Positions 3,315 through 41,619 of a stretch of DNA of 43,821 nucleotides are shown piece by piece. The notes beneath the pieces were generated by a model. That model saw only the letters and a program-made list of their open reading frames with translations, was not told the DNA's origin and searched no databases. Location of the stretch: the sequence record PQ850632.1; one strand, given 5' to 3'. This stretch comes from Escherichia phage VerenaMeyer_Bas76. The position numbers and the translations under genes are program-made. Each line of letters opens with the position of its first letter. Position 1 is the stretch's first letter.

Positions 3315-3336
3315 AGCCCCGAAAGGGGCTTTCTTA
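3315..3336 (+). terminator. stem-loop AGCCCC-GAAA-GGGGCT followed by TTCTT (attenuator-like)
   Basis: Perfect 6-bp GC stem with GAAA tetraloop and a short T-run between the portal and head morphogenesis genes. Confidence 0.4.
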
Positions 3337-3340
3337 TAGT

Positions 3341-4417
3341 ATGCTATTAACTTTAGCGCCACAGGGTTTATCTATGAGCTTACTTACATCCCTAATCAGC
3401 CATCAGATATGGCTGCAACGCACCGCATCCGGTGAGGTGAAAGACCTCACGCCGTTCATTCAGGAGATAAGGGATGAAATCAAACGGCAGGTGCTGTTAT
3501 TCGGTGACGACGGTCGCAGCACTGCGCGACTGAATAAACTGTTACGCGACCTGGAAGAAGCACTAACCGGTATTACGGGTGACTGGCAAACAAAGCTAAC
3601 AGACGACCTTAAGGAACTGGCGGCGTACGAGGCTGAGTGGAACGTAAAGACACTGACCGCCAACGTAGACGCGGAATTTGTTACGCCTACCGCTGAGCAG
3701 GTATGGGCCGCTGCCGAGTTTCAACCATTATCATTGAGCGACAAGCCCGTTGATTTCACCAAGCTGATGTCTGGATGGGGCGAAACGGAAGTAGCACGTC
3801 TTGTAACTGGAGTTAAGATGGGCTTTGTGCAAGGTCAAACCACACGGCAGATTGTTAAGAATGTTGTTGGCGCTGGTGGACTAGCCGACATCTCAGAACG
3901 TAACGCGACTACGGTAATCCGCACCGCGCTGTCCCACGTATCCAACGAGGCCCGTAACGAGACGTACCGCCAGAACGACGACATCATCGAGAAGTACGAG
4001 TGGGTGTCAACGCTTGACAGCCGCACCAGTACGATTTGCAGGGTCAGAGACGGGATGACGTGGGAAATTGGTAAGGGGCCGATGCCCCCAGCCCATCCGA
4101 ACTGCCGGTCGTGCACGGCTCCGGTAATCAGTTCCGAGTTCGACTTCCTCGATAAAGGCGCAAAACGCGCGGCTAAAGGCGCGGAAGGTGGCACTCAGGT
4201 AAGCGCAGACACCACTTACTACGAGTTCCTTAAACAACAACCGGCGTGGTTTCAGGACCAGGCGCTCGGCCCGGTGCGAGGTAAGATTTTCCGTAACAGC
4301 GGTATATCGCCGGAAGAGTTTCGCGTAATATCTGTAGATGGTTTCGGGAATCCGCTCACGCTTAAGCAGATGGCGGAACTCGATAAACGTGTTGCTGATT
4401 ATCTGAAAGGGGAATAA
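3341..4417 (+). CDS. head morphogenesis protein (SPP1 gp7 / Mu F-like)
   Basis: 358 aa, directly after portal. Composition and position match the minor head protein family usually found after portal. ATG 3374 is an alternative start. Confidence 0.6.
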   Translation: MLLTLAPQGLSMSLLTSLISHQIWLQRTASGEVKDLTPFIQEIRDEIKRQVLLFGDDGRSTARLNKLLRDLEEALTGITGDWQTKLTDDLKELAAYEAEWNVKTLTANVDAEFVTPTAEQVWAAAEFQPLSLSDKPVDFTKLMSGWGETEVARLVTGVKMGFVQGQTTRQIVKNVVGAGGLADISERNATTVIRTALSHVSNEARNETYRQNDDIIEKYEWVSTLDSRTSTICRVRDGMTWEIGKGPMPPAHPNCRSCTAPVISSEFDFLDKGAKRAAKGAEGGTQVSADTTYYEFLKQQPAWFQDQALGPVRGKIFRNSGISPEEFRVISVDGFGNPLTLKQMAELDKRVADYLKGE

Positions 4418-4880: not shown

Positions 4881-4908
4881 AAAGGCCCCATTAAGGGGCC
4901 TTAGTTTT
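4881..4908. terminator. bidirectional intrinsic terminator (AAGGCCCC-ATTA-AGGGGCCTT)
   Basis: GC-rich hairpin with T-run on the plus side (AGTTTT) and A-run/T-run on the minus side. Sits between convergent genes 4417..4878(+) and 4908..5111(-). Member of a three-copy terminator family (see 12138 and 24196). Confidence 0.65.
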
Positions 4909-5111
4909 CAACGGAATCTTGTGTTTAAATCCTGCTCGTGGACGACCCTCAGAACAGTGTCATAATCCCCGTATCTTCCAGGTTCAAATATATCTAATGC
5001 CTTGTAAGCAGACATTGCGTCAGGGAAAACCTGCAGAACCTTTTTAACCCGGCACAAGTCACCGTCGAACTCTTCATCGAACTCTTGAACTACTTCGCAA
5101 ATTGCATACAT
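4908..5111 (-). CDS. hypothetical small acidic protein (67 aa), opposite-strand island gene
   Basis: ATG at 5111..5109 preceded by GGAGGTG on the minus strand. Driven by a TTGCAC-N17-TACTAT promoter copy and ends at the bidirectional terminator. No recognisable domain. Confidence 0.5.
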   Translation of the reverse strand: MYAICEVVQEFDEEFDGDLCRVKKVLQVFPDAMSAYKALDIFEPGRYGDYDTVLRVVHEQDLNTRFR

Positions 5112-5138
5112 TTTTCACCTCCTGTTTAAGTTAACTGA

Positions 5139-5167
5139 ATAGTACCCTATTATATTGGGGTGTGCAA
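5139..5167 (-). promoter_or_regulatory. sigma70-type promoter TTGCAC-N17-TACTAT (early promoter family copy 1)
   Basis: Minus-strand reading TTGCACACCCCAATATAATAGGGTACTATTCA. Near-identical copies at 13943..13971(-), 36609..36637(+) and 38025..38053(+). Confidence 0.55.
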
Positions 5168-5233
5168 ACTATTTATTTACGTATTCCAGTTATTCCACCG
5201 AATTGTAAATGTTGGAATAAACTATTCGAATAG

Positions 5234-5262
5234 TTGACTTTTCACTAAAAATATGATAAGCT
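5234..5262 (+). promoter_or_regulatory. candidate promoter TTGACT-N17-TGaTAAGCT overlapped by palindrome ACTATTCGAATAGT
   Basis: -35 TTGACT at 5234-5239; extended -10 (TG at 5254-5255, hexamer TAAGCT at 5257-5262). The 14-bp perfect palindrome at 5221-5234 abuts the -35. Confidence 0.3.
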
Positions 5263-9701: not shown

Positions 9702-10057
9702 GCACCGCTTTCAGCAAACGTATGCAGGGCGTGGGTACACGCCTGCTAACCAAATTCGGTAGCACGGTAGCTCTGGTTCGCGCTGGCTCGAAAGTGTGGG
9801 ATGAAGTTCTCGGTGAATACGTCTGGTCTGCGGATGAAGCGCTGCCGTTGAAGGCCGTTCCGGTTCCGGTAAACGCTGGGCTGGTAAACGGTACGACGAT
9901 TCAGGCTGGCGACATGATTGTTAAAGCGGATTGTAGTGTCGTTCCGAAGATGGAAGACAAGGTACAATTCGGCGGCGAGCAATGGTCGGTCGTAGCCATT
10001 GAGAAGAAGATGGTTAACGATGATGTCGTGGCATATTTTATTCAGGTGAGAAAATGA
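9698..10057 (+). CDS. head-tail joining protein (putative)
   Basis: ATG 9698 after GGGGAG; about 119 aa. Position between connector and neck genes. The ORF-track start at 9611 is probably too far upstream. Confidence 0.4.
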   Translation: MSTAFSKRMQGVGTRLLTKFGSTVALVRAGSKVWDEVLGEYVWSADEALPLKAVPVPVNAGLVNGTTIQAGDMIVKADCSVVPKMEDKVQFGGEQWSVVAIEKKMVNDDVVAYFIQVRK

Positions 10058-12137: not shown

Positions 12138-12166
12138 ACTAAGGCCCCTTTCGGGGCCTTTTTCTC
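12138..12166. terminator. bidirectional intrinsic terminator (AAGGCCCC-TTTC-GGGGCCTT)
   Basis: Hairpin with TTTTTC on the plus side, sitting between convergent genes 10964..12136(+) and 12165..12395(-). Same family as 4881 and 24196. Confidence 0.65.
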
Positions 12167-12395
12167 ACTCATCAATATTACTTCGATACTCCCGTAACTT
12201 CTCCAGACTTTCAATTGCTTCTGCTAAGTCGGTTCCGGTGTCCTTATGCCCGCGAAGACCCATGCACAATAACTTCTTCAATGCGTGCTGTAGTGCGGGG
12301 TCACGGATGTCGAAGGCACGGAGAACATCGTAAACGTCTACGGTCATAGTGCTGCCGTGAGTGTTTGTCATTGTTCGGTTGTATTTTGAAGTCAT
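12165..12395 (-). CDS. hypothetical protein (76 aa), last gene of the opposite-strand cassette
   Basis: Start overlaps the upstream stop (ATGA coupling with 12392..13522). No recognisable domain. Confidence 0.45.
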   Translation of the reverse strand: MTSKYNRTMTNTHGSTMTVDVYDVLRAFDIRDPALQHALKKLLCMGLRGHKDTGTDLAEAIESLEKLREYRSNIDE

Positions 12396-13522
12396 CCCAG
12401 CATCTCCGGTGAAATAGTTAAACGTGCGACCTCGCCATATTCGGCGCTATAAGTAATTACATTTGCACTACGGCCTGACATCCACCCGCCGCGGGAGGCA
12501 TAGGCGTCTTTAGCCGCTAAGGTGCGGTGTTGCTCAACAATCATGTTACGGCTTTCTACAATCTTCTGGTGGTGCAGGTGGCCTACGTGGGCGTAGCTAT
12601 AGACACTCTCACCGAACGCTTTGCGGAATTTGGCAATCATAACCGGTTCGATAGCATCGAATCGCGCCTTATGCCCGTGGTGAAAGAACAACGTCGTTTT
12701 TCCGTGTTGCACCATCTTGTAAACATCCGGCGACGTATCGACAATCACTCGGCTGTCGTTCGAATATAAAACTGTGAACATTTCAGCCAGCCATACAGAG
12801 CCTACAGGGTCATGGTTCCCCTGTACGATAAGCAAGCGAACATTTTTATGTTTAACCAGTGCCATATCTACAACACGGCGTACCATACGAATCATGTAGC
12901 GGACGAGTTTCTGGTAGCGAGTGTCTGCGTCCAACACGTGACGCGACTCGGGTGTAACGGCATCCAGACTATCGAAGTGCGCGAAATCACCCAGCAGGTT
13001 AATAACTCCTGTTCCTGCATCCGGTGCTTTCTGAAACGCCGCGTCGAACCAACGAGAGAACAGGTCTTCCGCAATCTTTATATCCCAGTCGTCGCCGCTC
13101 TCGTCGGCCCAGGCAAGCATACCGAGATGGAAATCAGATACCGTGTAAAGATTGAGTAGCTTGTCGTCGCGTTTGGCTCGAGTCGCTTTAGCCGGCGCAA
13201 CTGGCGTAATCTCTGACTTCATGCCTTCAATCACGGCTTTCATCAACTCGACCTGACGTTCAGCGTCGGTGTCTGTCTTAACCCATTGCAACTTAGTATT
13301 GCCGAACTCGTCTACCAGAGACGACGTCCCTTTAATCTTGTAGCCGTCTGGGACAAGGTGGCTAACGTCACGCCCGTGGCCTACACCTTTCTTAGCCAGC
13401 TTCGCTTTACGGATACGAATAACTCGGTCTGAGATGCCGTATTTACGGGCGATGTCTACATTCTTCATCCCGGCGTTCAATTCTTCCTGTAACTGTTCGT
13501 CGGTTATTTTCTTCTGGGCCAT
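12392..13522 (-). CDS. HTH-domain protein fused to calcineurin-like metallophosphoesterase
   Basis: 376 aa. N-terminal HTH (VDIARKYGISDRVIRIRKAKL). Ordered metallophosphatase motifs: SDFHLG, GDFAHFD, GNHD, HHGH, GHLHH. Confidence 0.7.
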   Translation of the reverse strand: MAQKKITDEQLQEELNAGMKNVDIARKYGISDRVIRIRKAKLAKKGVGHGRDVSHLVPDGYKIKGTSSLVDEFGNTKLQWVKTDTDAERQVELMKAVIEGMKSEITPVAPAKATRAKRDDKLLNLYTVSDFHLGMLAWADESGDDWDIKIAEDLFSRWFDAAFQKAPDAGTGVINLLGDFAHFDSLDAVTPESRHVLDADTRYQKLVRYMIRMVRRVVDMALVKHKNVRLLIVQGNHDPVGSVWLAEMFTVLYSNDSRVIVDTSPDVYKMVQHGKTTLFFHHGHKARFDAIEPVMIAKFRKAFGESVYSYAHVGHLHHQKIVESRNMIVEQHRTLAAKDAYASRGGWMSGRSANVITYSAEYGEVARLTISPEMLG

Positions 13523-13587
13523 GCTTACTTCCTCGTGTTTAGGATTTGTCCTATTTAACCACAGTGGATTCCTTTAAATAAAGGCAA

Positions 13588-13914
13588 CTATTTACTTTCT
13601 GCGCCTATCGCCCACCCTGTCATTACCATTTGCAGACGGGTGGCTGTCAGTAGGCTATAGAAAGCATCTCCGTTTTTCTCTACCGAACGTATCACTGTGT
13701 AGGTTACGGCCTGCGGGGGTAGGCCCGATTTACCGACATCTACGGCGGCCTCGCATTCACGGACTGTGGAGTCCTTAAATGCCTTTACAATAGTAGGGTC
13801 GGCTTTATCAAGCACACCAGAAGTCATAAGAACAGATTCACTAAATACCTGTTCGCACGGGGCTCCAAAAGTAGCAAAAGACATAAAACCCAGAGCTAGT
13901 ACTAATTTACGCAT
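13588..13914 (-). CDS. secreted/periplasmic small protein with signal peptide (108 aa)
   Basis: N-terminus MRKLVLALGFMSFATFGA is a classic signal peptide. ATG preceded by GAGGAA. First gene downstream of promoter copy 2. Confidence 0.55.
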   Translation of the reverse strand: MRKLVLALGFMSFATFGAPCEQVFSESVLMTSGVLDKADPTIVKAFKDSTVRECEAAVDVGKSGLPPQAVTYTVIRSVEKNGDAFYSLLTATRLQMVMTGWAIGAESK

Positions 13915-13942
13915 AATTATTTCCTCAGTAAGTTACATGTGA

Positions 13943-13971
13943 ATAGTACCCTATTATATTGGGGTGTGCAA
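13943..13971 (-). promoter_or_regulatory. sigma70-type promoter TTGCAC-N17-TACTAT (early promoter family copy 2)
   Basis: Minus-strand reading TTGCACACCCCAATATAATAGGGTACTATTCA, identical over about 30 nt to the copy at 5139..5167. Confidence 0.55.
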
Positions 13972-26941: not shown

Positions 26942-27257
26942 TTCTAAATTCCTTATATTGTTGGGGTATGTGCTTACTATAATAGTCTGCTATTAGGGTG
27001 TCAATCTGTTTTATCGAACCAACGACAAAAACATTTGCGCCACGTTTACGTATACGCTCGTGTTCCCGTAGCTGGTGCGGGTCTGGCTTAGTGTTTTCGT
27101 CTTTCTTCACCTCGACGAACCAGACGATGCCGCCGGGTAGAATTGCCAGCAGGTCAGGAGCGCCTGAACGTCCTTCGTAGGAAAGTTTACGAACGAGGCC
27201 ACCAATGGCCTCGAATCGCTCTTTTGCGTATTTCTGGATGCGGCCCTCTTTAGTCAT
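26925..27257 (-). CDS. VRR-NUC domain nuclease
   Basis: 110 aa. PD-(D/E)XK-type motifs GAPDLLAI...VWFVEVKK...QLREHE, characteristic of VRR-NUC. Confidence 0.7.
   Translation of the reverse strand: MTKEGRIQKYAKERFEAIGGLVRKLSYEGRSGAPDLLAILPGGIVWFVEVKKDENTKPDPHQLREHERIRKRGANVFVVGSIKQIDTLIADYYSKHIPQQYKEFRNETRI
26975..27003 (-). promoter_or_regulatory. sigma70-type promoter TTGACA-N17-TATAGT (internal, inside the 3' end of the VRR-NUC gene)
   Basis: Minus-strand reading TTGACACCCTAATAGCAGACTATTATAGT. Same family as 30678 and 32978. Confidence 0.45.
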
Positions 27258-29992: not shown

Positions 29993-30619
29993 TTAGCGGC
30001 GGCGACGTTCGCGGCGCGGTGCTTCATCTTCTTCGTCGTCTTCCAGGTCATTGACGCTCGCAGCGACTTTAGAACCGCCGAACGCTTTGCCTTCGCCAAC
30101 GTATTTAATCGCCAGCAGGTTAACGCCGAGGACTTTGTATTTCTGGCTGAACCAGATTTCAACGCTTACGTTAGCTAAGCATCCGCTGTAAACCTGTTCA
30201 CCTTCAATCTGTTCACCGTCTACATTGAAGTCCTGTTCTACCTGAGTCTCACCTTTTTTAGAGGTTACAATCAGCGGCTGCTTCTGTGCCTTCGCTTTGA
30301 AGTAGAAGCCTTCCGGGAAGTCTTCAAACGGATTGTCACGCTCGGCAATGTCTTTAATCGCACATTTATCCATGTGCTTACCTTCGCCGTAGTTGGACTT
30401 CATCCACTTCTCGGCGGCGGCTGCACCTAACGCTTCTTCAACTACAGCGTAAACGGTGTCGTAGAGCGCGTCGATTTGCGCGTGGTCGGACGGCAGGATA
30501 ATAGTCGCGCTGTACTGACCTTTAGTGATTGAACCATCATCATTTTCACGGTCTTTTTCGCGTTCGAATACGTTAACCCAGGCAGTGTTTACTTTACGCA
30601 GATTTAATTTCAGTCCCAT
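29993..30619 (-). CDS. single-stranded DNA-binding protein-like (putative)
   Basis: 208 aa. Sits alone under a strong promoter between the nuclease and polymerase genes. Acidic tail DLEDDEEDEA followed by an Arg-rich end. Assignment is tentative. Confidence 0.4.
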   Translation of the reverse strand: MGLKLNLRKVNTAWVNVFEREKDRENDDGSITKGQYSATIILPSDHAQIDALYDTVYAVVEEALGAAAAEKWMKSNYGEGKHMDKCAIKDIAERDNPFEDFPEGFYFKAKAQKQPLIVTSKKGETQVEQDFNVDGEQIEGEQVYSGCLANVSVEIWFSQKYKVLGVNLLAIKYVGEGKAFGGSKVAASVNDLEDDEEDEAPRRERRRR

Positions 30620-30677: not shown

Positions 30678-30706
30678 ACTATAATAGCTAACTATTCATG
30701 TGTCAA
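30678..30706 (-). promoter_or_regulatory. sigma70-type promoter TTGACA-N17-TATAGT
   Basis: Minus-strand reading TTGACACATGAATAGTTAGCTATTATAGT, nearly identical to the promoter at 32978..33006. Confidence 0.55.
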
Positions 30707-30895
30707 ATAAAATTTTGCAATAGGGATTATGTTCTCGAAATTAAGCATATTGGCCGGTTCGAACTCATCCTCTACAGGGTCGTATCGCATCATGGTACCG
30801 TTCAAGAACGTGAACGATTCCGAGTGTAGATACCCATCCCAGCGCCATACCATCAAAAAATCTTTATCAGTCGGCATTTCATTTACTTGAATCAT
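30692..30895 (-). CDS. hypothetical protein (67 aa)
   Basis: ATG 30895..30893 overlaps the nuclease stop (ATGA). The Shine-Dalgarno GAGGAGGA lies inside the last codons of the nuclease gene. The ORF track extends to 30925. Confidence 0.4.
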   Translation of the reverse strand: MIQVNEMPTDKDFLMVWRWDGYLHSESFTFLNGTMMRYDPVEDEFEPANMLNFENIIPIAKFYLTHE

Positions 30896-32148
30896 TCTAA
30901 ATCCTCCTCTGTAACTTGATTCCACTCAGGACGTTTGTCATCCGCCGTTGCGACGCATGGCGCACCGGGCTTACGGGTAATGAAGTCTTTCAGTTCTTCT
31001 TCCGGTACAATTTTAACCGCTTCGGTCGGTGTCATAAGAACTACCTTTTGCAGCATAGTACCGTACTTCTCGAATACTGCGTCGGTATCTTTCCACGCAC
31101 GATTACCGGGGCGACCTTCAACCAGTTTGTATCCTGGCACTTTCTTACCTGAATGCAAAGCAGCAGCCATCGCTTTCTCAACCTTGTCAATGTGCTGGCG
31201 CAACAAAGGCAACTTCTCATATTCAGCTACGAGTTGCTCCGGCGTAAGTTCCAGCGCAAAGTCGTCCTCCAGTTCTTCGGCAAGTACAGAATTAACAGTC
31301 TTTGTACGCGCTGCGCACTGTTCAGAGAACCGACACCACTGACAACCGTCGACAGACGGCTTAAAGTCCGACGCTTTCAGGTTCTTCTTGCCTCGGAAAT
31401 ACGCATCAAGGGCTAACAGTGCGCGTTTCTGTGCGAACTTAGCGAACAGTTCCAGACCTTCAACCGAGATGTCCCACTCCGACGCGCCCCCGGCGTACGG
31501 CTGGAAGATTACCAGGCGCACTACTGAGATGTTATAACGTCTCTTGAGTCGGCGGTAAACACCGAGAGCGTAGAGCATAAGCTGCTTGTTTTCTTTCGCT
31601 TCGACATGATGCCGTCCTGTTTTCAGGTCGCCGATAATGAGCATATGCTCGTCAGTGTTCGCCAGTTCCTGAACGGCAACGAGGTCGGCGGTTCCGAATG
31701 TCTCTACGCCTTCATATCCCGGATGCAGAACCTCAGTAAGATTTACGCGCATCTCCAGCTTCGCGTAAGTCGCCACGTCGATAATCGCTTTGCAGTAATC
31801 GGTGTACTTTGTACACTGGTCAATCATGTCCGCCGTAATCAGTACCGCACCTTTCATCGGACTGATTAGCGCCTTAATCTGACCTTTACCCTCATCCAGC
31901 ACGTAAGCGCCGACTTCTCGTTCTAACGGCAAAGCAGTTCCTTTGATGTACTGATTCAGGTGAATCTCAGATATCGTGTGCATAGCCGTGCCTGATATGG
32001 CGGCTTTACCTGACGTGTTAGGAATGTCTTTTTCACATGCCAGCGATGCACTGCACGCCAACCATTTCTTAGCACCAGACGGCGACAGTAAGGCGTGTAC
32101 ATCGTTATTTCCGCCGCGTTCCTTTAAAACCATGCTCTGCTCTCCCAC
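30892..32148 (-). CDS. PD-(D/E)XK exonuclease (Cas4/RecB-like) with Cys cluster
   Basis: 418 aa. N-terminal SPSGAKKWLACSASLAC, catalytic core IGDLKTG, QLMLYAL motif, C-terminal CQWCRFSEQC cluster. Ends VTEEDLE. Confidence 0.7.
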   Translation of the reverse strand: MGEQSMVLKERGGNNDVHALLSPSGAKKWLACSASLACEKDIPNTSGKAAISGTAMHTISEIHLNQYIKGTALPLEREVGAYVLDEGKGQIKALISPMKGAVLITADMIDQCTKYTDYCKAIIDVATYAKLEMRVNLTEVLHPGYEGVETFGTADLVAVQELANTDEHMLIIGDLKTGRHHVEAKENKQLMLYALGVYRRLKRRYNISVVRLVIFQPYAGGASEWDISVEGLELFAKFAQKRALLALDAYFRGKKNLKASDFKPSVDGCQWCRFSEQCAARTKTVNSVLAEELEDDFALELTPEQLVAEYEKLPLLRQHIDKVEKAMAAALHSGKKVPGYKLVEGRPGNRAWKDTDAVFEKYGTMLQKVVLMTPTEAVKIVPEEELKDFITRKPGAPCVATADDKRPEWNQVTEEDLE

Positions 32149-32306
32149 TGGTCAATTAAATGCCGTGTCTTGTGGTCGCAATGTAAGGCCCATCCATACA
32201 TCGACTCGAAGACATAAAAGTCACTTTTAACGAAAGTCGTACGCTTAATCTGCGACAGGTGACGGCCTATATCTTTAGGCCGTGGTACTTTTCCTAAGTA
32301 CGCCAT
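32124..32306 (-). CDS. hypothetical protein (60 aa)
   Basis: On the ORF track; overlaps the start region of the nuclease gene. No motif recognised. Confidence 0.3.
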   Translation of the reverse strand: MAYLGKVPRPKDIGRHLSQIKRTTFVKSDFYVFESMYGWALHCDHKTRHLIDQWESRAWF

Positions 32307-32445
32307 CTATTCCATCTGGTGTGCACCGGACGGCGCACGCAACAGCCACAACGCCTCTGTGTTATCCCGCCTGTCTACGGCGCGGTAGAGTTGGTAAATC
32401 ATATTTCCGCCCCTCCGTTAAAGCGGCCCGAAGGCCGCCTGATAG

Positions 32446-32946
32446 TTATTCTTCTTCGAAATACTTGTTCTTAATCGCCGTCAGGCGTTTCAGGTATTCA
32501 GCCAGGTCTTCGTCTTTAATCGCGGCAATCTTCATTTTCTTACCGGTGAACTCCTCCAGCAGTTCATCGGAATCGTCGCACGCAGCATCGCTAGGACCTT
32601 CGTTAATTGCATCGTCGATAGCCTGAATCTGGTCACGAAGAGACTGGTAATCGACCTCTTCTTTCTCTTCTTCTGGTTCTGGAGTCGGCTCCTCTACTTT
32701 AGCTTTACGCGGCTTGCGTTTCGGCTTCTCTTCTTCTGCTGGTTTAGCGTCAACGATGTCTTCACCTTCAACAGGGATTTCTTTTGTTGCTTCTTTTTCG
32801 CACTCAGCTACCGCTTCTTTGGTATACACTACCGTCTCTACTTCTAACGGCGCTGCAACTTGTGCTGACTGTTTCGCACTGTTCGCAGCAATCAGTTCAT
32901 GTGCAACTACGAAACGTTCCAGTAATTTTAAGAATTGTTCTAACAT
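32446..32946 (-). CDS. highly acidic protein, first gene after a strong early promoter
   Basis: 166 aa. Long Glu/Asp/Pro/Lys-rich region (EEPTPEPEEEKEEVD...), ends YFEEE. ATG preceded by the conserved leader AAACGAGAGGAGAGA. Confidence 0.6.
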   Translation of the reverse strand: MLEQFLKLLERFVVAHELIAANSAKQSAQVAAPLEVETVVYTKEAVAECEKEATKEIPVEGEDIVDAKPAEEEKPKRKPRKAKVEEPTPEPEEEKEEVDYQSLRDQIQAIDDAINEGPSDAACDDSDELLEEFTGKKMKIAAIKDEDLAEYLKRLTAIKNKYFEEE

Positions 32947-32977
32947 TTGTTTCTCTCCTCTCGTTTGGTATGGGCTA

Positions 32978-33006
32978 ACTATAATAGCGAACTATTCACA
33001 TGTCAA
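32978..33006 (-). promoter_or_regulatory. sigma70-type promoter TTGACA-N17-TATAGT
   Basis: Minus-strand reading TTGACATGTGAATAGTTCGCTATTATAGT. Divergent from the plus-strand promoter of the XRE gene. Confidence 0.6.
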
Positions 33007-33030
33007 TGGGCTTTTCTAAAATAATTAATA

Positions 33031-33039
33031 TGGTACTAT
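33031..33039 (+). promoter_or_regulatory. candidate extended -10 promoter (TGgTACTAT) for the XRE-type HTH gene
   Basis: TG at 33031-33032 and hexamer TACTAT at 33034-33039 followed by the ACTATTCA box; no good -35. Confidence 0.35.
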
Positions 33040-33070
33040 TCACATATCAACTGACTAAGGAGTAATTGAC

Positions 33071-33286
33071 ATGCAACCATCTGAACTAGGCATCCGTGTA
33101 GAACAACGCCGCAAAGAACTCGGCATCTCCCAGCGCCGTCTGGCGGTCCTGGCTGGCGTTTCCCAGGGCGCGATTAACCAGCTTGCGCTCGGGGTAACTC
33201 AGGACGTCCGGCCGGCAACGCTGTTCAAACTGGCGGAAGTTCTGGAAGTAGACGCCAAGTGGCTGGCGTTAGGTGAAGGGGCTTAA
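33071..33286 (+). CDS. XRE/Cro-type helix-turn-helix transcriptional regulator
   Basis: 71 aa. HTH signature ELGISQRRLAVLAGVSQGAINQL. Lone plus-strand gene between two minus-strand operons. Confidence 0.7.
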   Translation: MQPSELGIRVEQRRKELGISQRRLAVLAGVSQGAINQLALGVTQDVRPATLFKLAEVLEVDAKWLALGEGA

Positions 33287-33301
33287 AGCCCCTTTCTTTT
33301 T
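33276..33301 (+). terminator. intrinsic terminator (AAGGGGCTT-AA-AGCCCCTT plus TTCTTTTT)
   Basis: The hairpin contains the stop codon of the HTH gene and is followed by a T-run. Confidence 0.5.
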
Positions 33302-33303
33302 AC

Positions 33304-35526
33304 CTATTCCAAATCCTCCTCTGTCACCACCAGCATCTCATTTGGTTCGTATAGTGTCTTCGGCCTTAATCTATCCCCTATTCTTTCGGGTATACGATAT
33401 GTTCTCGGTACTACTTCGCCGTTAGCATCGCAACCAAGCATTAGTTCTCCATCTTTCAACATTTTATCAAGATGGGTGTTAGTCACAGAGAAGTCACCGG
33501 AACGAGCCACTATCTGCTGCTGAGTAAAACCGCGACCTGTGTCATCTGACTGTTGCAGGTCTTCCAGTGCCGAAAGTATTGACTCCTTCCTTACTTCATC
33601 CCTGCCGCGTTTAACTTCTTCCTTTACTTTTTGCTTACCTTCTTTCGTCAACCCTTCTTCCCGCTCTTTCTCCTCGTCAGTTTTGAACGGCTCGAAACCC
33701 CACGGCATCAACACAAGCGCCTTGTGTGGTTCAGGAAGGTCCAGGTTTACGATTGTGCCGTATTCTTCTGTGCCCCCCAGGAACTCAACCGCACGGTACT
33801 CTTTCGGCGGCGGAGCTTCGCGGAACTGCACAGACTCCAGCACCATGCCAACCGTTTTCTGTTGAGGACCGTGCTTAAATTTCGAGTGGTATACGTTTAT
33901 TTGACGGTCGGTTGCACGTTCGATTGTCAGTTCCACGTCAACACCCGCATACAGCGCCCCACTGCCGCGTGCTTTCTTTCCACCCTTCGGCGTATGGTGG
34001 ACAACGCCTACTGCGGCTTTAGTTGCATCGCGTACTTCTTTCAGAATGGCGATAACTTTACCCATGCCGATTGCTGTTGATGAACTGTTCTCGTCGAACT
34101 TATCAATCGTCAGTGCCAGGGTCTGGTTAAGGGTGTCGAACGCAACCATGCCAATTGGCTCGTCGCCAGCAGTTTCGCGCATTAACTTAATCAGGCTTTT
34201 AAGTTTGCCGACTTCGCCCATATCGATGACGTGTACATAATCTTTACCTTCCCCGCCATATTTAGCCGCTAGTGCATCAATACGGGTGCGTGTAGCTGCG
34301 CCACCCTCACCATCAATATAGAAATGGTGGCAACGCTGGGTATCCGCCCCCGCAAACCTGTACCCGGCGGCGCTGAGGTACATCATCCCCAGCGTATAGA
34401 ACGATTTGTACGTGCCAGATTCCCCGACGATATCCCAGATACAATCCGACGGCATGTACCCCTCAACGACGAAATCAGCCTTTACCGGCTCCGGTAACTC
34501 GTCCTCCTCTGAGTCCTCGTCGTCTTCCAGGTCGTCGAGGCTGCAAGTTACTGGGTCCTCGTTCTCTGTGCGGTGTAGTTCTTCAATCTCTTCTTCCGGT
34601 AAATCAGGCAGAGCCGCACGAATGCTGTTAATGCTGATAGGTTGCTTATCTATGTTAAGCTCGTCGGGTAGGCCACACATACGCAGGGCCAAATGCTGCC
34701 TACGGTTAAGCTCGGTGCAAGCGCCGTTGTTTGTATGCTGGCAGACAAAGCGCACTTCTTTACCGTCGAGCATTATGCTGGTGGAGCCCTTGCCTGTATG
34801 CAGATGTTCGTTAGGGCATGGCACTTCGTACCCGCGCCCGGAAGATAAAGCGTCAAGGCCAAGCTCGGCTTCGCAGAAGTGTGCTATATCCGCGTTAAGC
34901 CCATGCTCATCAGCGGCAAGTGTTTTAGCCTCACGCTTACGCAACCCCATCTCTTCGGCTTTCTTGATGTACCGCTCAGCACGGATAACACGCCCTTCTG
35001 TAACCGTTATCTTCGACTCTTTATGCGGCAGGTAGATAAGGCGGTTGCCGTCTTCTGTGCAGTGGTCGCGCAACGCTTCGTCTATTTCTAACTCTGCACA
35101 AATAGCACGTTGCACCATCCACGCGTCGTTAGAGTTAAACGGCGTGCGAGCTGGAACCAGAACGCGGAAAGCGTAATCTCCATTTTTACATGCGTGCTGA
35201 TGCGATGCCGTTGTGTGCAGAATATTGAAGAACGGCGCGTTCTTGAATTTGCGTGTCAGGTCGCGGTACTGAGTACGGTTGAGATGGTCGAAATCGAACT
35301 TAACCACACTGTCTTCCAGGATAGCGTTTTTACGGCGACCACCAACAGGCGCAATAGCTTTCTGTTTAATCTTGGCAGCGTCGTACTCTTCCTTAGTCCA
35401 TGACGGGTCCACGGATAAACGCTTCGATGTATCGCAGACATACTCGACAAACTGCTCCAGCGGCATTTCACGCGCTACAGGGTTTTTATCGAATGTGTTA
35501 CGCAGCGTTGCAAAAACAATATTCAT
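33304..35526 (-). CDS. DNA primase / replicative helicase (primase-polymerase-like N-terminus, zinc-binding region, RecA-like ATPase)
   Basis: 740 aa. Cys/His cluster CPNEHLH...C, Walker A-like GESGTYKS, RecA-like helicase core. Ends VTEEDLE. Confidence 0.65.
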   Translation of the reverse strand: MNIVFATLRNTFDKNPVAREMPLEQFVEYVCDTSKRLSVDPSWTKEEYDAAKIKQKAIAPVGGRRKNAILEDSVVKFDFDHLNRTQYRDLTRKFKNAPFFNILHTTASHQHACKNGDYAFRVLVPARTPFNSNDAWMVQRAICAELEIDEALRDHCTEDGNRLIYLPHKESKITVTEGRVIRAERYIKKAEEMGLRKREAKTLAADEHGLNADIAHFCEAELGLDALSSGRGYEVPCPNEHLHTGKGSTSIMLDGKEVRFVCQHTNNGACTELNRRQHLALRMCGLPDELNIDKQPISINSIRAALPDLPEEEIEELHRTENEDPVTCSLDDLEDDEDSEEDELPEPVKADFVVEGYMPSDCIWDIVGESGTYKSFYTLGMMYLSAAGYRFAGADTQRCHHFYIDGEGGAATRTRIDALAAKYGGEGKDYVHVIDMGEVGKLKSLIKLMRETAGDEPIGMVAFDTLNQTLALTIDKFDENSSSTAIGMGKVIAILKEVRDATKAAVGVVHHTPKGGKKARGSGALYAGVDVELTIERATDRQINVYHSKFKHGPQQKTVGMVLESVQFREAPPPKEYRAVEFLGGTEEYGTIVNLDLPEPHKALVLMPWGFEPFKTDEEKEREEGLTKEGKQKVKEEVKRGRDEVRKESILSALEDLQQSDDTGRGFTQQQIVARSGDFSVTNTHLDKMLKDGELMLGCDANGEVVPRTYRIPERIGDRLRPKTLYEPNEMLVVTEEDLE

Positions 35527-35651
35527 TTCTTTTTCTCCGCACGTTCTAAGGCTTCCTGCATACGGCGCATTGCGCGGTTCATCTTTACCGGCGCGAAGAA
35601 ATCGGCGCCGTGTTTCTGTCGGCGCAGCTGTGGAACTATTAACTTCGTCAT
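35523..35651 (-). CDS. hypothetical 42-aa basic peptide (below cutoff)
   Basis: Manual translation MTKLIVPQLRRQKHGADFFAPVKMNRAMRRMQEALERAEKKK. Stop overlaps the primase ATG (ATGA). Confidence 0.3.
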   Translation of the reverse strand: MTKLIVPQLRRQKHGADFFAPVKMNRAMRRMQEALERAEKKK

Positions 35652-35720
35652 TGTATAATCCTTGTGCTTACTTTGATGATTTGTGCTTTGGCCCCGACGT
35701 TCTTGCGTTGGGGTTTCTTT

Positions 35721-36011
35721 TTACCGTTTAGCCAACTCTTCCAGCAAATTTTTATACTCTTCAAAATATTCCTCGACCAAATCATCGCCGAAATAGAAGT
35801 CGATATACTCGAGATTATCTCTTACGTTAAGCGATGCCGACATGGTGCTTAGTTGGCGTAAGCTAATTAGCTTCATTTCTGTTTCTACACAGAAAGGCCG
35901 GTAGGTATCAAGATGGCAAGAGATATTGAAACATAAGGCGAACTCTCCCGCCACGGTGTGGACCATATACACTTCGTTTTCTGCTTTATTGTGGAAAATT
36001 ACGCCTTTCAT
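35721..36011 (-). CDS. hypothetical protein (96 aa)
   Basis: ATGA-coupled to the upstream HTH gene. No motif recognised. Confidence 0.45.
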   Translation of the reverse strand: MKGVIFHNKAENEVYMVHTVAGEFALCFNISCHLDTYRPFCVETEMKLISLRQLSTMSASLNVRDNLEYIDFYFGDDLVEEYFEEYKNLLEELAKR

Positions 36012-36190
36012 TTCACGTTCTCCTTAATCCATGCTTCGACTTTATTACGGTCAAATGTTCCCGGTAAACGGCGGCCCATAACCTTAATACAGCAGTCAGG
36101 GAATTTGCCGCTGCGCAACCAGTTATTAATGGTCTGACGTGTCACCCCGATACGTTCAGCTACTTCATTCTGCGTCATATAATGCGACAT
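36008..36190 (-). CDS. AlpA/excisionase-like HTH DNA-binding protein
   Basis: Motif MTQNEVAERIGVTRQTINNWLRSGKFP. ATG at 36190 preceded by AGGAGAT; the ORF track extends to 36304. Confidence 0.55.
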   Translation of the reverse strand: MSHYMTQNEVAERIGVTRQTINNWLRSGKFPDCCIKVMGRRLPGTFDRNKVEAWIKENVK

Positions 36191-36287
36191 TTTTATATCT
36201 CCTGTTTGTTTGGTGAAACTGAGTATAGGATAGCGGGAATGTAAAAGCAACCAATCTCTGTAATATTTAATCTTTACAAAAATGTTA

Positions 36288-36317
36288 TTGAAAGTTCTTG
36301 ACACATGTTTGTATAAT
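36288..36317 (+). promoter_or_regulatory. candidate promoter TTGAAA-N18-TATAAT
   Basis: -35 at 36288-36293, -10 at 36312-36317. Directs transcription into the non-coding region 36325-36540. Confidence 0.3.
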
Positions 36318-36344
36318 GGTTTTGGGACTTGTATATATTACGGA

Positions 36345-36376
36345 GTTGACGAACCCTCCCCGAGGGATTCGTCAAC
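36345..36376 (+). other. long imperfect hairpin (GTTGACGAACCCTC / GAGGGATTCGTCAAC) in the control region
   Basis: 14-bp stem with one bulge and a 3-nt loop, seen directly. Flanked by two copies of the 12-mer AACCCTCCCCGA (36352-36363 and 36568-36579). Confidence 0.5.
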
Positions 36377-36516
36377 CCCTCCCAGACAGCTGAGATGCTT
36401 GCCTTGGGGTTTAAGGATAAGTGTATCTAAATCTCATTTAAAGAAGTAACCCGCTGAAATATCTACTGTTTCTTAATGTGCCGTAGATTCGCAACCGTAA
36501 AAATGTAACGATTATT

Positions 36517-36540
36517 GGGCAGGCTTAAGCCTGCCCTTTA
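36517..36540 (+). terminator. terminator-like hairpin GGGCAGGC-TTAA-GCCTGCCC plus TTTA
   Basis: Perfect 8-bp GC-rich stem with a short T-run. Confidence 0.4.
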
Positions 36541-36608
36541 GTTACCAAGTAATAAGAATAAAGGCACAACCCTCCCCGAAGAATCACAACGGCAACGTAA
36601 CTATTCTC

Positions 36609-36637
36609 TTGCACACCCCAATATAATAGGATACTAT
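36609..36637 (+). promoter_or_regulatory. sigma70-type promoter TTGCAC-N17-TACTAT (early promoter family copy 3)
   Basis: TTGCACACCCCAATATAATAGGATACTATTCA followed by the leader CGAAACGAGACAGAGGAG. Confidence 0.55.
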
Positions 36638-36662
36638 TCACTTATCGAAACGAGACAGAGGA

Positions 36663-36863
36663 GTGGTGGTTATGTTTAAGAAGGGTCAGTTGATTAAAAC
36701 GATGTACGGTAGCTTAGGTATTATTGAAAAGAAATCGGCAGTGTACCGAAGTTCTTATGTCGTTAGCTTACTCAGGGAGCACGGGTTAAGTTCCGCGGCG
36801 TATTACCAAGAGTATGAAATGAAACTAATTGGCAACAATTTTAAATTCAAAGGGGTGAAGTGA
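36663..36863 (+). CDS. hypothetical early protein (66 aa)
   Basis: First ORF after promoter copy 3. GTG 36663 or ATG 36672. Confidence 0.45.
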   Translation: MVVMFKKGQLIKTMYGSLGIIEKKSAVYRSSYVVSLLREHGLSSAAYYQEYEMKLIGNNFKFKGVK

Positions 36864-37078
36864 TGGAAGAATTAATTTGTATTGAATCCCGCCAGGATGT
36901 GCAGGATTGGTTTGTGAAAGGTAACAAATATTCGTCAGGAGTATATTACGACGGCCGTCGATACGTTTTAGATGAAGACGGTGATGAATGGGATTTAGAG
37001 GACACTGTGGGCGAGACTTTAACCGTTAGTTTTCTTCAATGTTGTTTCCGCATCATTCACAACGGCGCCGAATCATGA
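36860..37078 (+). CDS. hypothetical early protein (72 aa)
   Basis: Start overlaps the upstream stop. Acidic protein. Confidence 0.45.
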   Translation: MMEELICIESRQDVQDWFVKGNKYSSGVYYDGRRYVLDEDGDEWDLEDTVGETLTVSFLQCCFRIIHNGAES

Positions 37079-37110
37079 TGCTCGTGCCGACGACTCTGAG
37101 GGAGGTTGCC

Positions 37111-37335
37111 GTGAATAATATTTTAATTGTGGGGGTTGATATGAGTCCGTATAACCAATTCCGCCTTGAGCGTCTACGTCGCGGATTAAGTAACGCTAAA
37201 TTAGCTCTCGATATATGGGAGAGTACGCCATATTTTTCCTCGAAGGCCTGGTATGTAGCTCGCGCTAAAGCGTCCGTACAGTACCGCGAGTATAAGTTAA
37301 ACAGTTTCCTTAAACACCACGGGGTAGCGTTATGA
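37111..37335 (+). CDS. hypothetical early protein (74 aa)
   Basis: GTG 37111 after GAGGGAGG. The ORF track extends upstream to 37039. Confidence 0.4.
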   Translation: MNNILIVGVDMSPYNQFRLERLRRGLSNAKLALDIWESTPYFSSKAWYVARAKASVQYREYKLNSFLKHHGVAL

Positions 37336-37475
37336 GAGAAGCATTCGAACGATGGGCCGTCGTAGAGGGTCTGCCGGTTAACAAGGGTTTAAAGAAAGAG
37401 TACCTGAACGTTAAGACGCGTCTTGCGTGGCGGGCGTGGAAAGCTGGTGCGCAAGCTGTGATGAATAAGGGGTGA
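37332..37475 (+). CDS. hypothetical 47-aa protein (below cutoff)
   Basis: ATGA-coupled. Manual translation MREAFERWAVVEGLPVNKGLKKEYLNVKTRLAWRAWKAGAQAVMNKG. Confidence 0.3.
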   Translation: MREAFERWAVVEGLPVNKGLKKEYLNVKTRLAWRAWKAGAQAVMNKG

Positions 37476-37478
37476 TTT

Positions 37479-37673
37479 ATGGGTAAGTGGATTAAGTGTA
37501 GTGAGCGAATGCCGGGTGACTTTGAAGATGTCCTGGTTTCGGATGGGGGTAACGTTGAGGTGATGTGGTGGGACTGCGACGGTTTCTGGGATTGTTGGGC
37601 GCCGCGCAACTCAAACATCGATATAGACGATGTGACTCACTGGATGCCGTTACCTGAGCCGCCAGAAGTGTGA
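37479..37673 (+). CDS. DUF551-like small protein
   Basis: 64 aa. C-terminal WMPLPEPP motif and Cys/Trp-rich core typical of the phage DUF551 family. Confidence 0.5.
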   Translation: MGKWIKCSERMPGDFEDVLVSDGGNVEVMWWDCDGFWDCWAPRNSNIDIDDVTHWMPLPEPPEV

Positions 37674-37714
37674 TGTTATATTGTAACAATAGTTTGGGAT
37701 TTTACTGAGTGACT

Positions 37715-37736
37715 TACGCTGCTACACAGCAGCGTA
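37715..37736 (+). other. 9-bp stem-loop TACGCTGCT-ACAC-AGCAGCGTA in an intergenic region
   Basis: Perfect inverted repeat, followed by a second hairpin GTGTCG...CGACAC at about 37751-37770. Confidence 0.4.
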
Positions 37737-37816
37737 CAACTTTAGATTAGTGTCGTCAAAAAGCGACACTTTCACCAAACGCAACAATCGAAGTGACTAT
37801 TGCAGGAGACGCAACA

Positions 37817-37984
37817 ATGATTACTAAAGAACAAGCGCAATCATTATATGATGCGATTATCGCAGTTGCAGAGGCACACGCGGACTACGCAACAGCGGAT
37901 TACTATAGTGTTGACGACGCTGGGGGTAGGAAACGCGAGGCCGAGACAAATTTATGGGATGTGTTGCAGAGGATGACCTCGTAA
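37817..37984 (+). CDS. hypothetical early protein (55 aa)
   Basis: ATG 37817 after AGGAGA. The ORF track starts at GTG 37793. Confidence 0.35.
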   Translation: MITKEQAQSLYDAIIAVAEAHADYATADYYSVDDAGGRKREAETNLWDVLQRMTS

Positions 37985-38024
37985 CCTGTCCCGTGGTGAC
38001 AATACAAACACCAATAAAATTTAC

Positions 38025-38053
38025 TTGCACACTAAGATAGAATAGGCTACTAT
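38025..38053 (+). promoter_or_regulatory. sigma70-type promoter TTGCAC-N17-TACTAT (early promoter family copy 4)
   Basis: TTGCACACTAAGATAGAATAGGCTACTATTCA followed by the leader ACACAAACGAGAGGAGAGACGGAAG. Confidence 0.55.
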
Positions 38054-38084
38054 TCATTTACACAAACGAGAGGAGAGACGGAAG

Positions 38085-41569: not shown

Positions 41570-41590
41570 TCTATTTTCTGCAATGACTAG

Positions 41591-41619
41591 TTGACTATTA
41601 CCATCGACCCTATTATATT
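41591..41619 (+). promoter_or_regulatory. sigma70-type promoter TTGACT-N17-TATATT
   Basis: -35 at 41591-41596, -10 at 41614-41619, followed by the leader CGACAACGAGAACGGGGTAGAGAGAA and ATG 41654. Confidence 0.5.

Follow-up and report, generated by a model that had tools for sequence, protein, structure and literature searches.

The stretch of DNA analyzed here (the window) comprises 43,821 nucleotides of Escherichia phage VerenaMeyer_Bas76 (PQ850632.1), a Kagunavirus (Guernseyvirinae) that is 96% identical to phage Bas75. It carries genes for two small HTH proteins, one of which is Cro-like and matches Pfam family HTH_3 (E = 2e-12), while the other, an HTH_17 protein, is encoded by the first gene of a leftward operon whose last gene is that for the helicase-primase. 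Ahead of non-structural genes stand σ70-type promoters bearing a palindrome (Table 1). In this virulent E. coli phage, at least eight to ten promoters contain the palindrome, whose copies are single and dispersed across 36 kb.

Table 1. Palindrome-associated promoters and genes for candidate regulators in the window
Feature	Position	Strand	Details
Class A promoter, block TTGCACACCCCAATATAATAGGGTACTATTCA	5136–5167	-	-35 TTGCAC 5162–5167; -10 TACTAT 5139–5144; operator core 5138–5151
Class C promoter	5221–5262	+	-35 TTGACT 5234–5239; -10 TAAGCT 5257–5262
Class A promoter	13940–13971	-	operator core 13942–13955
Class B promoter TTGACA-N17-TATAGT (11/12 consensus)	26976–27004	-	perfect operator 26981–26994 in spacer
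Class B promoter TTGACA-N17-TATAGT	30678–30706	-	operator core 30683–30696
Class B promoter TTGACA-N17-TATAGT	32978–33006	-	operator core 32983–32996
cro-like gene promoter region	32995–33042	+	best candidate TTCACA-16-TAAAAT (32995–33022)
71-aa 434-Cro-like HTH_3 protein	33071–33286	+	proposed operator-binding repressor
60-aa HTH_17 (excisionase/MerR-like) protein	36008–36190	-	Pfam HTH_17, E = 1.6e-8
Class A promoter	36609–36640	+	TTGCAC 36609–36614, N17, TACTAT 36632–36637; operator core 36625–36638
Class A promoter	38025–38056	+	TTGCAC 38025–38030, N17, TACTAT 38048–38053
Class C promoter TTGACT-N17-TATATT (41591–41619)	41586–41619	+	operator-like ACTAGTTGACTATT 41586–41599 over -35, 1 mismatch

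The initial annotation had called attention to an 8-mer, ACTATTCA (or TGAATAGT), in promoters that it presumed to be early, and all seven of its positions are correct (5136 and 13940 on the minus strand; 30691, 32991, 33035, 36633, and 38049 on the plus strand). Seven copies in the window compare with 1.09 expected, a number reached in none of 100 shuffled sequences. The 7-mer ACTATTC occurs 11 times against 4.56 expected, a count that takes in 36600 and both arms of a palindrome at 5221–5234. The repeat is therefore real, but the repeated unit is longer than had been supposed: TATAATAGSNWACTATTCA is common to all seven sites (seven against 0.09 expected, with up to three mismatches), and ACTATTCA is the right arm and flank, a half-site rather than a whole site, of a dyad-symmetric putative operator, K-AATAG-N4-CTATT-M. 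This palindrome of 14–16 bp, which can also be written (T/G)AATAG-N4-CTATT(A/C), has a core of 14 bp arranged as 5-4-5. The core has 12 matches with no more than one mismatch (1.18 expected), seven of them perfect. In a ranking of 11,264 inverted repeats, covering every 5-bp arm with gaps of 0–10 nucleotides, AATAG-N4-CTATT came first in the window (seven observed, 0.03 expected, p = 4e-15), as it did in phage fBC-Eco01 (seven against 0.05) and in Salmonella phage Jersey (four against 0.03); the rest of the top-ranked repeats were terminator hairpins. An information profile of 16 sites gave 1.7–2.0 bits for the arms, 1.07 for the flanking position, 0.58 for the inner positions, and 0.02 for the two central positions.

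The palindrome occupies three registers. As had been described for the 8-mer, it lies over the -10 in class A promoters (TTGCAC-N17-TACTAT) and in the spacer in class B promoters (TTGACA-N17-TATAGT), where it also reaches the upstream edge of the -10; in class C promoters an operator-like site lies over the -35. The original list lacked the full site at 26981–26994, which reads AATAGCAGACTATT on the transcribed strand and is without the 8-mer, and the -35 sites at 5229 and 41586. Each of the three class B promoters matches the consensus at 11 of 12 positions; together they account for three of the four best σ70 matches between 26 and 44 kb and so should need no activator.

Among the leftward promoters, that at 26976 is embedded in the resolvase ORF, in its 3' part, with gene 26941 and the helicase genes after it, that at 30678 drives the genes for the ssDNA-binding protein (29993–30619) and DNA polymerase, and that at 32978, which is divergent from the cro-like gene, drives 32446–32946 and the exonuclease operon. 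The promoters at 36609 and 41586 drive, respectively, a rightward small-gene operon starting at 36672 and the rightmost small-gene operon, and the operator of the promoter at 38025, GAATAGGCTACTATTC (38040–38055), has perfect 6-bp arms. Two further promoters serve genes on the opposite strand: a 67-aa gene (4908–5111) within the structural module is driven from 5136, and an island running from 13914 to 12165, which encodes a 108-aa protein, a DNA-repair exonuclease, and a 76-aa protein, is driven from 13940. Finally, the promoter at 5221 stands before gene 5282 and the spanin genes. The two half-sites reported there (5221–5234) are present, but their orientation is wrong for an operator; the region is better read as an extra half-site, ACTATTC (5221–5227), followed by the operator-like GAATAG-TTGA-CTTTTC (core 5229–5242, one mismatch) overlapping the -35. 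This architecture is that of the site at 41586, and the promoter is conserved in fBC-Eco01 at 6154. The additional ACTATTC noted at 36600 does exist, but it stands alone as a half-site immediately before the -35 of the 36609 promoter, is not conserved in fBC-Eco01, and is probably a chance occurrence.

The same palindrome is present at the orthologous promoters of Jersey. The arms are kept, and divergence falls in the N4 center and in the stretch separating the -35 from the arm. Thus, AATAG-N4-CTATT is retained with diverged flanks at the orthologue of the 13940 promoter (Jersey 16956), and the arms are unchanged at that of the 36609 promoter (39909), which reads TTGACA-N18-TACTAT. The orthologues of the 26976, 30678, and 41586 promoters (29242, 32929, and 42337, respectively) are annotated as promoters in Jersey, and in the last of these (AATAGTTGACTAGT) the mismatch is in the opposite arm. 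Could such a pattern have arisen without a dedicated regulator, from promoter cassettes that share an ancestor or were spread by gene conversion, combined with contacts by σ70, whose -10 hexamers the arms resemble? The 32-nt blocks at 5136 and 13940 are identical and that at 36609 is nearly so, which suggests copying, and in classes A and B the right arm supplies part of the -10. We nevertheless consider this explanation improbable, since the left arm occupies spacer or upstream positions that σ70 does not read, the element is dyad symmetric with an uninformative center, three registers are occupied, and the arms persist across genera while Jersey has not kept the rest of the block (for example, CACCCCAA). 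The palindrome, its three registers, and its cross-genus arms instead favor the original suggestion that a fixed sequence at variable positions is a regulator's site rather than a polymerase contact.

What might the regulator be? Two candidates had been put forward, and comparisons of sequence and predicted structure clearly favor the XRE-type protein, the product of the cro-like gene. Among solved structures, 434 Cro matches it best in sequence, over the full length (E = 2e-6). Its predicted fold has five helices (pLDDT 82) and is matched best by 2CRO and 3CRO, with 2CRO at the top (TM-score 0.74–0.81, 42% identity). Two copies of the palindrome adjoin its gene in the divergent region. Like the window operator, 434 operators (ACAAG-N4-nTTGT) are 14-bp dyads with a 5-4-5 layout and an uncontacted center, and AATAG shares with ACAAG the A at position 1 and the A-G at positions 4–5. 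As with the sites of 434 Cro and CI (OR1–3 and OL1–3), the operators overlap promoters and copies adjoin the regulator gene. The system departs from 434 in that the half-site is AATAG, the sites are single and dispersed rather than clustered as triplets at two operators, and their reach would extend to gene islands within the structural module; moreover, the phage has no CI partner, integrase, or lysogeny module, its group being annotated as virulent.

The same pairing of protein family and operator type recurs in distant homologues (33–43% identity) from uncultivated temperate phages in IMG/VR. In six of 10 such loci (L060, L061, L063, L064, L065, and L068) a perfect A[AT]TAG-N4-CTA[AT]T lies within 150 bp upstream of the gene. 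Only seven other perfect sites occur in 138 kb of homologue loci; six are paired, about 25 bp apart, in OL-like clusters 0.65–2.4 kb downstream, and the seventh is in the L060 intergenic region, just beyond the assumed gene start. These loci are CI/Cro-type immunity regions with a CI 31% identical to that of 434. Unlike the window protein, the homologue is the N-terminal domain of a 229–230-aa CI with an S24 peptidase domain, its operators are clustered (OR- and OL-like, 24–25 bp apart), and the dominant half-site is ATTAG. That homologous repressors elsewhere are accompanied by the same type of palindrome is a further argument against an origin without a regulator. Judging from these comparisons, the palindrome is most likely the operator of the phage's small 434-Cro-like repressor.

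The second candidate, the HTH_17 protein, is a less attractive choice. It had been called AlpA-like, but it is a generic HTH_17 protein outside the AlpA family: PF05930 is not matched, and no significant homologue, AlpA included, was found among solved structures. Under this alternative the protein, made from a candidate promoter in which we found no palindrome, would bind the palindrome and either activate transcription or, once loaded at the promoter, act in antitermination like AlpA or Q. Its occurrence does track the crisp motif. Only Kagunavirus and Jerseyvirus, two genera with a common core half-site, have the protein (80–84% identity; 80% for the Jersey copy), and both it and the crisp AATAG palindrome are missing from phage St162, which counts against the Cro-like protein. 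So does the recognition helix, which reads SQGAINQ in the window and SQSLITH in Jersey, with an identical core half-site. The substitute motif in St162 is degenerate and weakly significant (ATTAG-N4-CTAAT, four against 1.3 expected); TATTA-N6-TAATA, a motif chosen post hoc, occurs eight times against 1.19 expected, and the homologue of the 38025 promoter (at 13003) has TATTAG-N4-GTAATA in place of the operator. On the other hand, the base flanking the half-site varies between G (90) and T (110) in Kagunavirus and is T in 48 of 48 Jerseyvirus sites, and such a difference between genera fits a genus-variable binder (the Cro-like proteins are 49% identical) better than the near-constant HTH_17 protein. 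Small HTH_17 proteins of the Xis/BldC type bind head-to-tail direct repeats. In the promoters that P. aeruginosa AlpA controls, its binding element is located between -35 and -10 (PMC7969949). The class B sites are similarly placed, and lambdoid Q antiterminators likewise have a binding element embedded in a promoter, but the AlpA element (GGGACG-N5-GGTA) is not palindromic (PMC7969949), and class A and C sites fall outside the spacer. In addition, the HTH of the window protein starts at residue 5, leaving no N-terminal segment like that which AlpA inserts into the RNA exit channel; the near-consensus class B promoters have no need of an activator; and none of the distant homologue loci, where Cro-like homologues adjoin the same operator type, encodes an HTH_17 protein. 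In favor of the HTH_17 protein, RNA-seq of a related phage placed an HTH gene among four "early" genes (PMC12645636), and from gene order this is probably the HTH_17 gene. On balance, we regard this alternative as unlikely.

Recognition by a host DNA-binding protein seems very improbable. Nothing specific speaks for it beyond a core common to E. coli and Salmonella phages, and we know of no enterobacterial regulator whose consensus fits the palindrome. Furthermore, the flank varies with phage genus, and the motifs of Jersey and St162 differ although both have Salmonella as host. Another proposal comes from the literature, where the motif is already published and left unexplained. PHIRE found seven copies per genome of a motif with the consensus tgAATAGTa-ccTATTat-T in the Kagunaviruses fBC-Eco01 and VB_EcoS-Golestan (PMC9825357, PMC7203180). 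This is the window motif at syntenic positions (the 26976 promoter, for example, corresponds to PHIRE promoter 4 at fBC-Eco01 27126), and it was reported as predicted promoters only, with no palindrome, registers, or Cro link. For fBC-Eco01 the seven "phage promoters" (PMC9825357; GenBank features) were ascribed to a phage-encoded RNA polymerase, an idea to which we give almost no credence and which gene content already contradicts: there is no RNA polymerase gene, ORFs of more than 700 aa all being tape measure, tail, tailspike, DNA polymerase, or helicase-primase. The sites are also embedded in ordinary -35/-10 promoters, and PHIRE detects repeated sequences only.

We therefore return to the Cro-like protein, a dimer of which probably binds the palindrome as a repressor at promoters that include its own. 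We infer both binding and repression, and repression over activation solely from site position and promoter strength. A dimer bound to AATAG-N4-CTATT would in every case cover an essential part of a predicted σ70-type promoter (the -10 for class A, the spacer plus the upstream -10 edge for class B, and the -35 for class C) and so would exclude host RNA polymerase. As the protein accumulated, expression of the operons for replication and recombination, of the small-gene operons, and of both opposite-strand gene islands would be lowered. If this reading is right, the protein would have operators at its own promoter and at most of the non-structural ones, providing for shut-off and autoregulation, a gene switch that we take to be real and fairly ordinary. 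The protein would limit its own synthesis through a weaker operator, AATATGGTACTATT (33027–33040, one mismatch), which lies at about +1 of the candidate cro-like gene promoter, with its center 44 bp from that of the operator at 32983. All 28 distinct Kagunavirus sequences compared have this mismatch.

The 8-mer ACTATTCA, singled out by the initial annotation as a box common to early promoters, occurs at exactly the seven places assigned to it (7 copies against 1.09 expected), a number reached in none of 100 shuffles. The shorter ACTATTC is likewise in excess (11 against 4.56 expected, including the copy at 36600 and both arms of a 14-bp palindrome at 5221). The repeat exceeds eight bases: the seven 8-mer sites share one relative orientation and all match TATAATAGSNWACTATTCA (7 against 0.09 expected), which is the inverted repeat AATAG-N4-CTATT, and the window holds 12 matches to the latter with no more than one mismatch, against 1.18 expected (see table). 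One perfect copy, at 26981, had been overlooked because the 8-mer is absent there. When all inverted repeats with 5-bp arms and gaps of 0-10 nt (11,264 combinations) were counted without bias in three genomes, AATAG with a gap of 4 ranked first in the window (7 against 0.03 expected, p = 4e-15) and likewise in the relative fBC-Eco01 (7 against 0.05) and in the Salmonella phage Jersey (4 against 0.03), the other top inverted repeats being G+C-rich terminator stems. Given that about 1.2 matches are expected, the one-mismatch sites at 3335 and 35353 are probably fortuitous, as is the ACTATTC at 36600 that had been counted with the promoter copies. The site at 3335, TATAGTATGCTATT, directly follows a terminator hairpin and overlaps the ATG (3341) annotated as start of the head-morphogenesis gene. 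Chance may account for it, or it may be an additional site; translation of that gene may in fact begin further downstream.

Putative operator sites, promoters and neighboring features of the window
Feature	Site start	Extent	Strand	Description
Class A promoter	5138	5136-5167	-	perfect site across spacer and -10; TTGCAC-N17-TACTAT
Class A promoter	13942	13940-13971	-	same architecture, perfect site
Class A promoter	36625	36609-36640	+	same architecture, perfect site
Class A promoter	38041	38025-38056	+	same architecture, perfect site
Class B promoter	26981	26976-27004	-	perfect site in spacer; TTGACA-N4-AATAG-N4-CTAT-TATAGT
Class B promoter	30683	30678-30706	-	same architecture, perfect site
Class B promoter	32983	32978-33006	-	same architecture, perfect site
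Class C promoter	5229		+	one mismatch; -35 formed by N4 center and right arm, (A/C)TAG-TTGA-CT
Class C promoter	41586		+	same architecture, one mismatch
Site of cro-like gene	33027	33027-33040		one mismatch; near +1 of TTCACA-16-TAAAAT
Site at head-morphogenesis gene	3335	3335-3348		one mismatch
Further site	35353			one mismatch
14-bp palindrome		5221-5234		two half-sites
cro-like gene		33071-33286	+	71 aa
HTH_17 gene		36008-36190	-	60 aa
Island		4908-5167	-	within structural module
Island		12165-13971	-	within structural module
Stably folding region		36288-36545	+	promoter TTGAAA-18-TATAAT
Terminator hairpin		3315-3330		upstream of site at 3335
Terminator-like hairpin		36517-36536		end of stable fold

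The stretch from 30000 to 38500 matches 440 phage records, and because the best of these is Escherichia phage Bas75 (96.4% identity over 100% of the query), the phage is, on sequence similarity, a Kagunavirus of the subfamily Guernseyvirinae, a group of virulent siphoviruses of ~43 kb. According to the Bas75 annotation, the interval 1-24 kb contains rightward structural genes, interrupted by two small opposite-strand islands; genes for replication and recombination occupy 24-36 kb and point leftward; and the stretch 36.6-43.8 kb is again rightward, with small genes and lysis genes. Neither that annotation nor the open reading frames of the window include an RNA polymerase, an integrase or a CI-type (S24) repressor, and the cro-like gene is an isolated gene flanked by two leftward operons, not part of a CI/Cro bistable lysis-lysogeny switch. 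The two islands carry identical 32-nt palindrome-bearing promoters and look like moron-type insertions that share control with the replication genes; St162 (a Salmonella phage) and Jersey have islands at matching places, each with its own version of the site. We also note a control-region indel between the otherwise 96%-identical phages: between a leftward gene start and its palindrome-bearing promoter, Bas75 (33129-33413) has ~250 bp more than the window (32947-32982), and an open reading frame, Bas75_0049, is annotated across the extra sequence.

Ten of the sites overlap a promoter-like sequence, at its -10, its spacer or its -35, two of them being in the divergent region beside the cro-like gene. 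Each class A promoter has a Shine-Dalgarno sequence and a start codon 25-35 nt downstream, and the class B promoters, which agree with consensus at 11 of 12 positions, are three of the four best σ70 matches between 26 and 44 kb. As had been proposed, the cro-like gene's own promoter (the best candidate found) carries the box, the center of its site being 44 bp from that of the site in the divergent promoter at 32983. The 14-bp palindrome previously described ahead of the spanin leader does exist, but its half-sites are back to back, which is not operator geometry, and the right-hand one serves as left arm of the class C site at 5229. TATAAT was considered as the class A -10 and rejected, as it has no usable -35 (2-3 of 6 positions); the homologous promoters of Jersey (TTGACA-N18-TACTAT) and St162 (TTGCAA-N17-TAATAT) also favor the tabulated hexamers.

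The pattern of conservation bears on what reads the site. The arms hardly vary, if at all, among 40 Kagunavirus sequences, and variation within sites falls mostly in the center. Between orthologous promoters of the window and Jersey, which belong to different genera, AATAG and CTATT are kept while the centers (caga/aaca, ttag/ttaa, gata/tgta) and the bases from the -35 to the arm (ccct/aatt, catg/cctt) differ; several of the Jersey sites coincide with promoter features of its GenBank record. In a pool of 16 sites, the arm positions carry 1.7-2.0 bits of information; the value is 1.07 for the flanking base, 0.58 for the inner positions and 0.02 for the central two. The element is thus a dyad-symmetric 14-bp site whose outer 5 bp on each side are conserved and whose middle 4 bp vary. 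This profile fits reading by a symmetric dimer and not by RNA polymerase, in keeping with the suggestion that the box is a regulator's binding site rather than a polymerase contact. At the flanking position, Kagunavirus half-sites have either G (90) or T (110), and all 48 from Jerseyvirus have T; hence the ACTATTC(A) initially reported is a genus-specific form of the half-site. Common descent of the promoters with no regulator involved is very improbable, since it would explain neither the symmetric left arm, at positions that σ70 does not read, nor the three registers. Recognition by a host factor is unlikely because the two Salmonella phages differ in motif.

The motif has been recorded before in a different guise. 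PHIRE yielded seven "phage promoters" in fBC-Eco01, with consensus tgAATAGTa-ccTATTat-T (PMC9825357), annotated in GenBank (OM272052) at syntenic positions, and seven also in VB_EcoS-Golestan (PMC7203180). The accompanying reading for fBC-Eco01, that these are promoters for a phage-encoded RNA polymerase, fails because this phage group is without such a polymerase; no gene for one was found among the open reading frames or in the annotation. The label (OM272052; PMC9825357) is therefore misleading and may propagate. In some records the Cro-like protein is named "cro" or "repressor," and a literature search returned no paper that treats the palindrome as an operator, describes its registers or links it to that protein.

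Two small proteins had been put forward as binders. The Cro-like protein belongs to Pfam HTH_3 (47 bits against a cutoff of 23); its best match of solved structure is 434 Cro, over the full length (residues 6-68, E = 2e-6), and its predicted fold of five helices (pLDDT 82) has 2CRO as top Foldseek match (TM-score 0.74/0.81), with 3CRO also among the top. The other candidate, described as AlpA-like, proved not to be a member of that family: its Pfam matches were to HTH_17 and generic HTH families only, not to AlpA (PF05930), so that it is a generic HTH_17 (excisionase/MerR-like) protein, and comparison with solved structures gave no homolog and no AlpA match. Its HTH starts at residue 5 of 60, and an N-terminal RNA-exit-channel segment is lacking. 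Ten small or neighboring open reading frames yielded no further DNA-binding protein, only a DUF551 domain.

Within the subfamily, sequence comparison is ambiguous as to which protein binds. The Cro-like protein shares 49% identity with its Jersey counterpart and 40% with that of St162, and the recognition helices differ; for the HTH_17 protein the identity with Jersey is 80%, and St162 has neither this protein nor the AATAG palindrome. Homologous St162 promoters carry a related, degenerate TAWTA-N6-TAWTA (8 against 1.19 expected, for a pattern chosen after looking), and a repeat search on St162 found nothing promoter-like. Co-variation of operator and recognition helix through St162 is thus suggestive at most, its motif being degenerate and weakly significant; the St162 helix, TQSAISH, is closer to that of Jersey than to that of the window. 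We note that a small divergent Cro-type protein of L063, an IMG/VR locus of an uncultivated temperate phage (9671-9922, minus strand), has the recognition helix VTQSAISH, as in the St162 Cro-like protein (9779-10000), and that both genomes have ATTAG/CTAAT-type half-sites, which hints at a correspondence between helix and half-site.

The deciding test was of homologs outside the subfamily, and it points to the Cro-like protein. Among viral contigs, a profile search gave ten distant homologs, and six of these (L060, L061, L063, L064, L065 and L068) have at least one perfect A[AT]TAG-N4-CTA[AT]T, and often two or three, in the 150 bp upstream of the gene. The 138 kb of these loci contain seven other perfect sites, six in OL-like clusters (pairs ~25 bp apart) 0.65-2.4 kb away and the seventh in the L060 intergenic region, just past the assumed gene start, so that all of them fall within the immunity regions. 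All six loci are classical immunity regions, each with a small divergent HTH gene and a CI of 229-230 aa that is 31% identical to 434 CI and carries an S24 peptidase domain. The Cro-like HTH lineage is thus tied to 5-4-5 operators of exactly this type. None of the loci encodes the HTH_17 protein, which has no homologs outside the subfamily in the phage collection. We regard binding of the palindrome by the HTH_17 protein as unlikely, even though the distribution of that protein among the phages is consistent with it and an element between -35 and -10 has a precedent in AlpA (PMC7969949): the protein is not of that family, the AlpA element is not palindromic, and class A and class C sites lie over the -10 or -35, leaving only the three class B promoters with AlpA/Q placement. 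Terminator-like hairpins, looked for as AlpA/Q-type downstream terminators, occur at chance frequency. As a separate observation, DicA of the Rac prophage (L070) is 42% identical to the Cro-like protein; its dicA-dicC region has no AWTAG-N4-CTAWT site, and a different palindrome, TGTTAG-N6-CTAACA, was seen by eye in the intergenic region at ~1134-1151.

The best-supported reading of these comparisons is that a dimer of the Cro-like protein binds the operators and excludes RNA polymerase by covering the promoter at its -10, spacer or -35. The operators of phage 434, ACAAG-N4-nTTGT, have the same 5-4-5 layout as the palindrome, and the first glutamine of the 434 recognition helix contacts base 1. 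Both that glutamine and the A at half-site position 1 are invariant in all lineages examined, which suggests a link between the two, as in 434. Because the class B promoters are near consensus and the sites overlap hexamers, the effect would be repression and not activation: the Cro-like protein would lower transcription of the operons for replication, recombination, small genes and islands and, through its own weaker site, cap its own synthesis. In terms of the lambdoid switch, it would correspond to the Cro half, the CI half being missing in this virulent phage. RNA-seq of a relative, phage K1B4 (PMC12645636), with its coarse time resolution and a supplementary table limited to host annotation, yielded neither promoter positions nor timing that could be applied here. 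It is conceivable, though decidedly unlikely, that the site has a dual use, with the HTH_17 protein loading or activating RNA polymerase at the palindrome and the Cro-like protein later competing for shut-off. The HTH_17 protein, made from a palindrome-free promoter, would then be a small regulator of a new type, found only in Kagunavirus and Jerseyvirus and serving as middle-gene activator or AlpA/Q-like antiterminator, and one 14-bp element would time the whole non-structural program of a virulent phage.

The finding is real, coherent and useful for annotation, though mechanistically conventional; the proposed mechanism is textbook, and the conceptual gain is therefore modest. For the Guernseyvirinae, a large group of therapeutic candidates (about 440-550 records), a published annotation is corrected, since the motif cannot mark phage-polymerase promoters where the group has no such gene. 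There is also now a testable map of one Cro-type protein and some ten operators over the promoters of replication, recombination, small-gene and "moron" island operons. A strictly virulent phage may have retained one half of an ancestral immunity module, Cro, for use as a global shut-off device, and resident prophages whose CI recognizes AWTAG-type operators might repress these phages.

Finally, the near-consensus promoter (11 of 12 positions) at the start of the stably folding region is palindrome-free. The ~210 nt that follow it fold unusually stably (MFE -72.4 kcal/mol, z = -4.5) up to the terminator-like hairpin. An Rfam scan of the window, this region included, gave no matches; the region may specify an early non-coding RNA or a leader between divergent early operons.
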